Source: an uncultured bacterium
GTDB lineage: Bacteria; CAYJRR01
DNA: 64,000 nucleotides
NCBI GenBank assembly: GCA_964372275.1
Contig: CAYJRR010000004.1
Span: 7,113-71,112, forward strand
Reading direction: 5' to 3'
Position numbers and translations under genes: made by a program. Below are positions 59,644 through 59,762 of the stretch, one piece after another (within the stretch, counting starts at the first letter, position 1; each line of letters starts with the position of its first letter). The notes beneath the pieces were generated by a model that was not told where the DNA came from, ran no database searches, and worked only from the letters and a program-made list of their open reading frames with translations.

Positions 59644-59762
59644 AGAAATGGAAAATGAAAAATGGAAAATGAAAAATGAAAAATGGGAAATGGGAAATGA
59701 TCCGAACCGTCCGCCTCCGAAATTTTGAATTTTCCATTTTCCATTTTCCATTTTCCATTTTC
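59644..59762. repeat. AT-rich heptamer-repeat palindromic element, copy 2
   Basis: Read directly from the sequence. (GAAAATG/GAAAAAT/GGGAAAT)n forms the left arm, followed by a GC-rich spacer and then (CATTTTC)n as the right arm. It has the same architecture as copy 1 at 11736-11851. Confidence 0.8.

Follow-up and report, generated by a model that had tools for sequence, protein, structure and literature searches.

We propose, with moderate confidence, that the AT-rich element at positions 59644-59762 of the window (the whole 64,000-nt stretch of DNA analyzed; the element is hereafter called copy 2) is one copy of a dispersed repeat defined by its structure, (GAAAATG)n - loop - (CATTTTC)m. 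A further element of this kind (copy 1) lies at 11736-11849, and comparison with orthologous loci identifies both copies as lineage-specific block insertions at gene termini. Judged by their organization, the two copies belong to a known, unexplained class of repeats, the inverted pairs of heptanucleotide simple-sequence-repeat arrays: 7-nt units are joined head to tail in tandem runs of at least three, and arrays of the same unit lie on opposite strands at a short distance from each other. Heptamer repeats are the commonest long simple repeats in bacteria. What the present analysis adds are insertion junctions at base level and evidence that heptamer elements can take over gene starts.

Structure of the two elements

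In copy 2, approximately eight GAAAATG-like units are separated by a GC-rich loop (21-28 nt) from a CATTTTC-type arm, with the following limits:

59644-59700, no strand: left arm (sequence reading and Tandem Repeats Finder)
59701-59721, no strand: loop (spacer), TCCGAACCGTCCGCCTCCGAA, 67 per cent GC
59722-59762, no strand: right arm, a degenerate ATTTTG and AATTTTC followed by five perfect CATTTTC units

The left-arm units read GAAATG, GAAAATG, AAAAATG, GAAAATG, AAAAATG, AAAAATG, GGAAATG, and GGAAATG, with one ATG within the arm (59676) and another at its end (59697); the AAAAATG and GGAAATG variants have no partner units in the right arm. Tandem Repeats Finder places the left array at 59646-59700 (period 7, 7.9 copies, 87 per cent matches), with additional higher-order periods of 14 and 21 nt, and the right array at 59729-59763 (period 7, 5.0 copies, 100 per cent matches). 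Folded as a whole, copy 2 is predicted to form a long hairpin (-47.8 kcal/mol, z -3.7), and its loop folded alone gives no stable hairpin (MFE 0.0, z +0.95).

A solitary CATTTTC occurs at 59771-59777, 8 nt 3' of the right arm of copy 2. It is part of the signal-peptide codons CGC ATT TTC GCA (R-I-F-A) and is absent in the orthologues; it might represent either a leftover of the array or a stretch of microhomology.

Copy 1 lies in a Bat-like operon, where it separates the gene of a MoxR AAA ATPase (stop 11725-11727) from that of a DUF58 protein (ATG 11881). It is therefore intra-operonic, and the first-pass annotation, which had placed it at the end of a plus-strand operon, was mistaken on this point. 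The features at this site are:

11719-11848, no strand: copy 1, a 130-nt insertion relative to orthologues
11798-11826, + strand: terminator-like hairpin within copy 1, CTGGCCCGGCATTGGCCGG then TTTTCCATTT (terminator scan)
11849-11857, + strand: displaced ancestral moxR end, CAG CCG TAG (last two codons and stop; orthologue comparison)

Copy 1 opens with a 17-nt non-repeat head (CCGGCTTGATCAGAACT), which provides the new moxR stop TGA at 11725-11727, and continues with a left arm (11736-11782), a loop of 28 nt, and a right arm (11811-11849). Tandem Repeats Finder reports period-7 arrays at 11736-11775 (5.9 copies) and 11817-11849 (4.7 copies). The predicted fold is again a long hairpin (-61.6 kcal/mol, z -5.9), and the palindrome reaches into the native flank (CGGCT ... 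AGCCG). A scan of copy 2 found no equivalent of the terminator-like hairpin of copy 1.

The arms of each copy are reverse complements of each other and thus form terminal inverted repeats. The arms have approximately 25 per cent GC, and the two copies are the sole sizeable AT-rich islands of a window with approximately 70 per cent GC. Their loops measure 28-41 nt by the array bounds of Tandem Repeats Finder and 21-28 nt by sequence reading. A two-unit probe (GAAAATGGAAAATG, at most two mismatches) matches the window at 20 sites, all of them within copies 1 and 2, as against 0.05 matches expected from shuffled sequences, none of which (0/100) reached 20; the four arms of the two copies are also the only period-7 arrays of at least three copies in the 64-kb window. 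Together with the alignment of the two copies, these results confirm the earlier claim that the element at 59644-59762 is a second copy with the layout of the element at 11736-11849. In the alignment itself, which had been proposed as a check, the arms are common to both copies and the loops are unrelated, yielding no meaningful alignment.

The Logan assembly of run ERR4904390 contains a 939-nt contig (L188) that matches window positions 58737-59675 exactly and breaks off within the left arm of copy 2. Since this is an independent assembly, the copy 2 junction is not an artifact of a single one. The Rfam search had no match at the gathering threshold in the whole window, and permissive thresholds over copy 2 produced only generic hairpin (miRNA) matches that were sub-threshold. 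Among the window open reading frames (ORFs) examined with Pfam there is no transposase, and no gene for a DNA-binding protein adjoins either copy. No sigma-70-like promoter was found at copy 1 or copy 2.

Both copies are absent from orthologous sites

An exact look-up of the DUF58 protein of the window retrieved no public record. DUF58 relatives with 66-73 per cent identity were traced to their contigs, of which the nearest are from soil metagenomes. In all five moxR-DUF58 junctions with available DNA (L121-L125), the two genes overlap or are separated by a gap of at most 11 nt, and no repeat is present; the same spacing applies to a sixth junction, represented by gene coordinates only. Orthologous moxR genes end in V/I-(K/Q/R)-(P/A)-stop (for example, CAG CCG TAA in L122 and AAG CCG TAG in L124), and in the window this ancestral end is split into GTC, 130 nt, and CAG CCG TAG. 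The comparison places the entry of copy 1, as one block, two codons before the old moxR stop. Measured against the five empty orthologous sites, the junction (GTC / insert / CAGCCGTAG) has no target-site duplication, with at most 1 nt being ambiguous.

The surroundings of copy 2 comprise the following genes and positions:

58882-59634, + strand: peptidase C26 / class-I glutamine amidotransferase gene (P0126, 100 per cent identical public protein)
59676-60377, + strand: lipoprotein ORF, starting in the left arm as publicly called (P0125, 233 aa)
59757-59759, + strand: site of the original lipoprotein ATG, which has become ATT in the final CATTTTC unit (orthologue alignment)
60403-61341, + strand: tandem lipoprotein paralogue with an intact canonical signal peptide, MHVSGGTPRVRTIVVATSLLLLLGFGTAGC

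The C26 gene stops at TGA 59632-59634, approximately 10 nt 5' of the left arm. Its orthologues, found at 69 per cent identity (L189) and 64 per cent identity (L190/L191), provide two distinct junctions on three contigs and have the gene order of the window, that is, SIS, amidohydrolase, C26, and then a lipoprotein of 206-207 aa. In these contigs, the C26-lipoprotein gap is 32-35 nt long, the repeat is absent, and an ATG stands where the window has its last CATTTTC. By this comparison, copy 2 is not ancestral; it arrived as an AT-rich block in the short gap between the C26 and lipoprotein genes and overwrote the lipoprotein ATG, at borders that are not exactly definable because the orthologous sequence is too diverged.

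Thus none of the orthologous loci studied, of which five correspond to copy 1 and two to copy 2, contains the arms, and the implication of the first-pass annotation that they are a conserved regulatory element upstream of genes is unsupported. The empty orthologous sites and the base-level junctions of copy 1 also indicate that a pair of heptamer arrays can be acquired in one piece, with no local seed needed.

Probable translation start of the lipoprotein within copy 2

The two genes downstream of copy 2 had been described as tandem lipoprotein paralogues, correctly so, as their products are 32 per cent identical (E 9e-27); both have a weak similarity to DUF6438 that is below the Pfam cut-off. 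A word-based search for homologues of the first lipoprotein returned only the protein itself, and its orthologues were found by synteny. The lipoprotein gene is duplicated in tandem in the window (59676-61341) and single-copy in the orthologous contigs (L189:3770-4393 and L190:5789-6409). The second lipoprotein of the window has a long Ala/Pro-rich C-terminal tail.

The orthologous lipoproteins start with MNRLVLLVALVALSGC and MTRALILASVVSLALAASGC. Their first residues, MNRL... (L189) and MTRA... (L190), align with I-F-R-L of the window (CGG CTG at 59763-59768), within the aligned residues ...I-F-R-L-R-I-F-A-V-S-M-A-L-L-M-P-G-C. At the nucleotide level, ATG AAC CGG CTC of L189 stands opposite ATT TTC CGG CTG of the window. 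Because the ATG of L189 aligns with the ATT of the window, the native lipoprotein ATG has been lost to the last CATTTTC.

The reading frame of the lipoprotein is open upstream through the right arm, which reads NFEFSIFHFPFSIF in this frame, and through the loop as far as ATG 59697, where the left arm meets the loop, and ATG 59676. Apart from these two codons, both in copy 2, no in-frame ATG leaves room for a usable signal peptide. From ATG 59787, only MALLMPG (seven residues) would precede the lipobox Cys (codon 59808-59810), and the earlier judgment that a signal peptide begun there is implausibly short therefore holds. The accompanying suspicion that translation starts in or right after the element is supported by the loss of the ATG, the open frame, the public call at 59676, and the precedent of the hslU locus described below. 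The lipoprotein start probably lies inside copy 2, giving MIRTVRLRNFEFSIFHFPFSIFRLRIFAVSMALLMPG/C, and we infer that ATG 59697, exposed at the boundary of arm and loop, is a likelier start than ATG 59676.

The lipobox of the first lipoprotein, at window 59799-59810, is L-M-P-G-C, with Pro at position -2, and those of its orthologues are L-S-G-C and A-S-G-C. Being atypical, it raises the prospect that export is impaired and that the gene is decaying; such a lipobox may reflect relaxed constraint on export and some loss of function.

A gapped pattern search of metagenomes for elements recovered an hslU locus on at least eight contigs from soil metagenomes (L221, L228, L244, L264, L271, L295, L300, and L303; for example, L228:1876-3094), in which the hslU stop is followed by a heptamer element and then by the gene of a 391-aa lipoprotein. 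At this locus, the ATG of the left arm is the only possible lipoprotein start (MENRKGT...), and immediately ahead of the lipobox Cys comes IFHF(L/P)FSIFLLSAGC, encoded by the right arm, the hydrophobic segment being IFHFLFSIFLLSAGC. The loop is 42 nt (14 codons) long in five of the seven contigs measured, with a sequence that varies. Among six aligned contigs, the arms are nearly invariant and the loop is variable; because of this invariance, covariation gives no evidence either way. Read in the frame of the gene, the hslU-locus element clearly encodes the start codon and the hydrophobic signal segment of the lipoprotein, a precedent that supports a start inside the element at copy 2.

The consensus units GAAAATG and CATTTTC are free of stop codons in all six frames. 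The consensus of the A-rich arm offers an ATG in all three frames, and that of the T-rich arm encodes the hydrophobic HFPFSIF, properties by which a lipoprotein could survive the loss of its own ATG. A general translation of the elements was considered as well and is unsupported: among the elements listed, loops are open in the frame of the downstream gene in 56 per cent of cases versus 47 per cent in control frames, which argues for translation as an occasional local accident and not as a general property. Heptamer elements may nonetheless erase a start or stop codon and yet leave the genes working. For annotation, this means that gene starts called beside heptamer elements are unreliable and may sit inside the repeat.

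Inverted heptamer arrays in other genomes

A search for exact (GAAAATG)3 in one genome per species identified at least 120 loci. The matches listed come from Acidobacteriota (many of them Pyrinomonadaceae and Vicinamibacterales), Planctomycetota, Bacteroidota, Clostridia, CPR lineages, and others. At least approximately 30 of the listed loci have the arm-loop-arm layout, with loops of 7-400 nt, and this layout is also found in complete long-read chromosomes (for example, OZ252004.1). The first-pass annotation had made its proposal depend on further copies, which are indeed abundant in other genomes and metagenomes, and on conservation of the arms in orthologous loci, which is absent. None of the papers on heptamer repeats cited below describes the GAAAATG unit, and a sequence-based literature search returned only irrelevant primer matches.

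Among the matches listed, Tandem Repeats Finder detected 319 period-7 arrays at the (GAAAATG)3 loci, as against 29 period-6 and 34 period-8 arrays. At distances of more than 300 nt from any GAAAATG-like array, the numbers for these matches are 66, 16, and 12, respectively, and the 66 period-7 arrays represent 50 distinct units. Adjacent period-7 arrays form 112 pairs among the matches listed, of which 48 are inverted and 3 direct, and the inverted pairs include the unrelated units AAGTCCA, AATTACG, ACAGTGG, and AAGATTC. We also considered GAAAATG as a special unit and rejected the idea, as same-composition controls are about as common in viral contigs (40 and 7 loci for two control heptamers versus 15 for GAAAATG). 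Because other units and the controls behave alike, these elements are defined by their 7-nt period and inverted pairing rather than by the sequence of the unit.

Inverted pairs with a clear compositional bias have the purine- or A-rich arm first in 39 of 45 cases among the matches listed, and the reverse order in 6; the corresponding count in viral contigs is 9 to 1. Since reverse complementation leaves the layout unchanged, the polarity is a true asymmetry, and among the matches listed it holds across units and phyla. A polarity test with a gapped pattern in viral contigs gave zero matches in both orientations. Three loci (L017, L046, and L054) have GAAAATG opposite CATTATC, and arm variants without a partner of this sort point to each arm evolving as an array of its own.

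Folded alone, the loops of the loci listed do not consistently form a hairpin (mean z -0.56, with 5 of 26 below -1.5), and a terminator core in the loop was rejected as a general rule for this reason. A conserved flanking motif or target site was not found either at the loci listed, where only decaying heptamer units are present at array edges. By crude ORF calls among the matches listed, 23 elements are in co-directional, 4 in convergent, and 3 in divergent gene contexts, mostly in very short gaps; these counts are not clearly different from random intergenic placement. One Pyrinomonadaceae chromosome carries GAAAATG copies with unrelated loops.

The Phycisphaerales metagenome-assembled genome CSMAG_1437 has six loci (L004, L010, L015, L042, L048, and L079) with a common core of approximately 100 nt (GTTTAGCGGCGACAAGTCC...GTTTAGCGGCGACCCGAAGGGGAGCG). 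GAAAATG arrays are located on one side of this core, with CATTTTC-type arrays on the other side in three of the six. Some of the copies are flanked by a REP-like GTAGGGCGGGTTCCACCCGCC hairpin, and GAGAATG and AAGTCCA units occur nearby. The conserved core indicates that some heptamer-armed elements are true dispersed repeats.

Relationship to described repeat families

REP/BIME and REPIN sequences are multi-copy palindromes in the operon mRNAs of enterobacteria and pseudomonads, where they occupy intercistronic or 3'-proximal positions, and REP hairpins protect upstream mRNA and modulate the expression of distal genes. However, REPs are short and GC-rich, have a GTAG-type head, and depend on a RAYT transposase, and none of these properties was seen in copies 1 and 2, whose arms lack a conserved GTAG-type head and are not GC-rich. 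Rickettsia palindromic elements insert into genes and are translated without destroying them, and in eukaryotic foldback elements, short tandem sub-repeats make up the inverted arms on both sides of a variable center. Neither is related in sequence to copies 1 and 2; moreover, the Rickettsia elements conserve a full-length consensus, and foldback elements are eukaryotic and far larger. The heptanucleotide elements of Geobacter are a related case.

The GGGAATC repeats of Xanthomonas have, like the GAAAATG repeats, tandem 7-nt units, mostly approximately four per array, in intergenic positions, and among approximately 185 arrays per genome they form 70-75 convergent inverted pairs (Rehm et al. 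2015, PMC4692102). In both systems, many arrays are paired on opposite strands nearby and are capable of forming stem-loops, and the elements are transcribed with their neighbors or likely to be so (PMC4692102 for Xanthomonas). In contrast to GAAAATG, which has no G3 tract and hence is no G-quadruplex unit, the G-rich unit of Xanthomonas forms G-quadruplexes (PMC4692102). The two systems differ also in persistence: 83 per cent of the Xanthomonas repeats are conserved in position between two species (PMC4692102), whereas the elements studied here are absent from all orthologous loci found (66-73 per cent protein identity).

According to the articles that cite the original work, heptamers are the most abundant class of long simple-sequence repeats in many genomes (Mrazek 2007, cited in PMC4679880), and cyanobacterial STRR heptamers and long simple-sequence repeats favor period 7, have many units per genome, and are intergenic (Mazel 1990; Mrazek 2007, cited in PMC4692102 and PMC4679880). 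A period-7 enrichment of this kind is also present in the GAAAATG-carrying genomes among the matches listed. In these secondary accounts, however, the repeats are described chiefly as single direct arrays, whereas those analyzed here are inverted pairs, and the polymerase slippage proposed there does not account for inverted pairing, polarity, or insertion at seedless sites.

The TAACTGA repeats of Beggiatoaceae, Cyanobacteria, and Bacteroidetes resemble GAAAATG in that one unit recurs across distant phyla (MacGregor 2015, PMC4679880). They lie a few nucleotides upstream of start codons and are suspected of a translational role (PMC4679880), and the elements described here are likewise near starts. 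The TAACTGA repeats are almost all direct, with one indirect repeat among 170 sets (PMC4679880), whereas GAAAATG arrays are typically paired; TAACTGA arrays have stop codons in all frames, whereas GAAAATG arrays are stop-free.

Origin and possible roles of the elements

In the explanation that we favor, a block of AT-rich DNA was inserted between the C26 and lipoprotein genes and removed the lipoprotein ATG. After its arrival, the arms would have evolved as plain repeat arrays, by slippage and homogenization within each arm and with no selection for perfect pairing. Copy 2 would be transcribed with its neighbors and would fold into an A-U-rich stem of approximately 40 bp between the cistrons. 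By analogy with intercistronic hairpins of the REP/BIME type, such a stem might decouple or partially attenuate expression and protect 3' ends. The lipoprotein would outlive the loss of its ATG by initiating within copy 2 and would carry a long, N-terminally extended signal peptide. The two visible copies have unrelated loops and so do not demonstrate copy-and-paste mobility in the source genome.

Several other explanations were weighed against this one. The A-rich-5'/T-rich-3' polarity (39 versus 6 pairs among the matches listed and 9 versus 1 in viral contigs) would suit a bidirectional intrinsic terminator or attenuator kept for its function, in which an A-U stem zips behind RNA polymerase on a U-rich (CAUUUUC) hybrid and transcription ends in the 3' arm on either strand; moreover, copy 1 holds a canonical GC hairpin with a T tract, and most elements among the matches listed are 3' of a gene end. 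We regard this as unlikely, because copy 2 is without a GC-rich stem-loop and U tract, the listed loops rarely fold by themselves (mean z -0.56, 5/26 < -1.5), and other units, among them AAGTCCA and GGGAATC, share this polarity without being U-rich. A strong terminator would also be harmful at copy 1, in a normally translationally coupled operon, production of the lipoprotein needs read-through of copy 2, and divergent regions are not clearly depleted of elements among the matches listed. A classical MITE or REPIN-like hairpin, moved in trans by a transposase that recognizes the heptamer arms, would account for the inverted terminal arms, the size of approximately 120 nt, and the existence of empty orthologous sites, and the six-locus family of CSMAG_1437 with its core of approximately 100 nt shows that a dispersed family can exist. 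Such an origin is rather improbable here, given that the well-defined copy 1 junction has no target-site duplication (at most 1 nt), that no internal sequence is shared between copies 1 and 2 or, in the Pyrinomonadaceae chromosome, among copies whose loops are also unrelated, that the many heptamer units per genome (among the matches listed) would need many specific transposases, and that none is encoded by the ORFs examined in the 64 kb. We give equally little credence to an extended form of the insertion scenario, in which inverted heptamer arrays would be a distinct kind of inserted hairpin DNA, generated through 3'-end repeat addition at a break or hairpin-dependent transposition, and would deliver a ready-made start with charged and hydrophobic segments in either orientation, that is, a signal-peptide cassette. 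If this were true, the absence of target duplication and the fixed A-rich-then-T-rich polarity would be expected from either route, and the cassette could replace or create signal peptides, having apparently been taken up at least twice for lipoproteins (in the window and at the hslU locus).

An origin in situ, from a palindromic seed grown by replication slippage and by hairpin-templated repair that copies one arm to the other, would require no imported DNA. Heptamer arrays are prone to slippage, and the 14- and 21-nt periods of the left arm, the isolated CATTTTC at 59771, 8 nt past the right arm, and the extension of the copy 1 palindrome to the native flank (CGGCT ... AGCCG) could all be read in this way. 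An AT-rich seed is, however, present in none of the seven orthologous junctions, slippage cannot make the 17-nt non-repeat head and the unrelated 28-nt loop of copy 1, and both arms would have been needed together in a gap of 0-35 nt of a genome with 70 per cent GC, all of which makes local growth decidedly unlikely. The omega repressor of plasmid pSM19035 binds contiguous 7-bp heptads in direct and inverted orientation, and by analogy the elements might be candidate protein-binding arrays, namely, an operator, centromere-like, or iteron site of convergent heptads. The form fits, with contiguous 7-bp units that are direct and inverted, but the idea has very little to recommend it when no DNA-binding protein gene lies by copy 1 or copy 2, the orthologous operons work without the element, dozens of different units occur in the same genomes (among the matches listed), and the arms are heterogeneous in sequence. 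Finally, short-read assemblers break at such repeats, as the end of L188 in the left arm illustrates; yet an assembly or sequencing artifact is scarcely credible, as the same junction is found in an independent assembly, both copies sit in otherwise normal gene neighborhoods, the lipoprotein reading frame is kept through copy 2, and the architecture is present in complete long-read chromosomes (OZ252004.1).

Other features of the window

Three further features of the window were recorded. A 201-nt tandem repeat at 52-436 (1.9 copies, 75 per cent identity) is contained in an ORF at the edge of the window and probably encodes a repeated protein domain. A long GGC/CGG-rich run at 35608-35763 (period 9, approximately 15 copies) is situated upstream of a DUF2652-methyltransferase gene. 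The GC content dips locally to 0.63 at 42001-43000, against approximately 0.70 otherwise, and a 40-nt AT-rich patch is present at 42665-42704.
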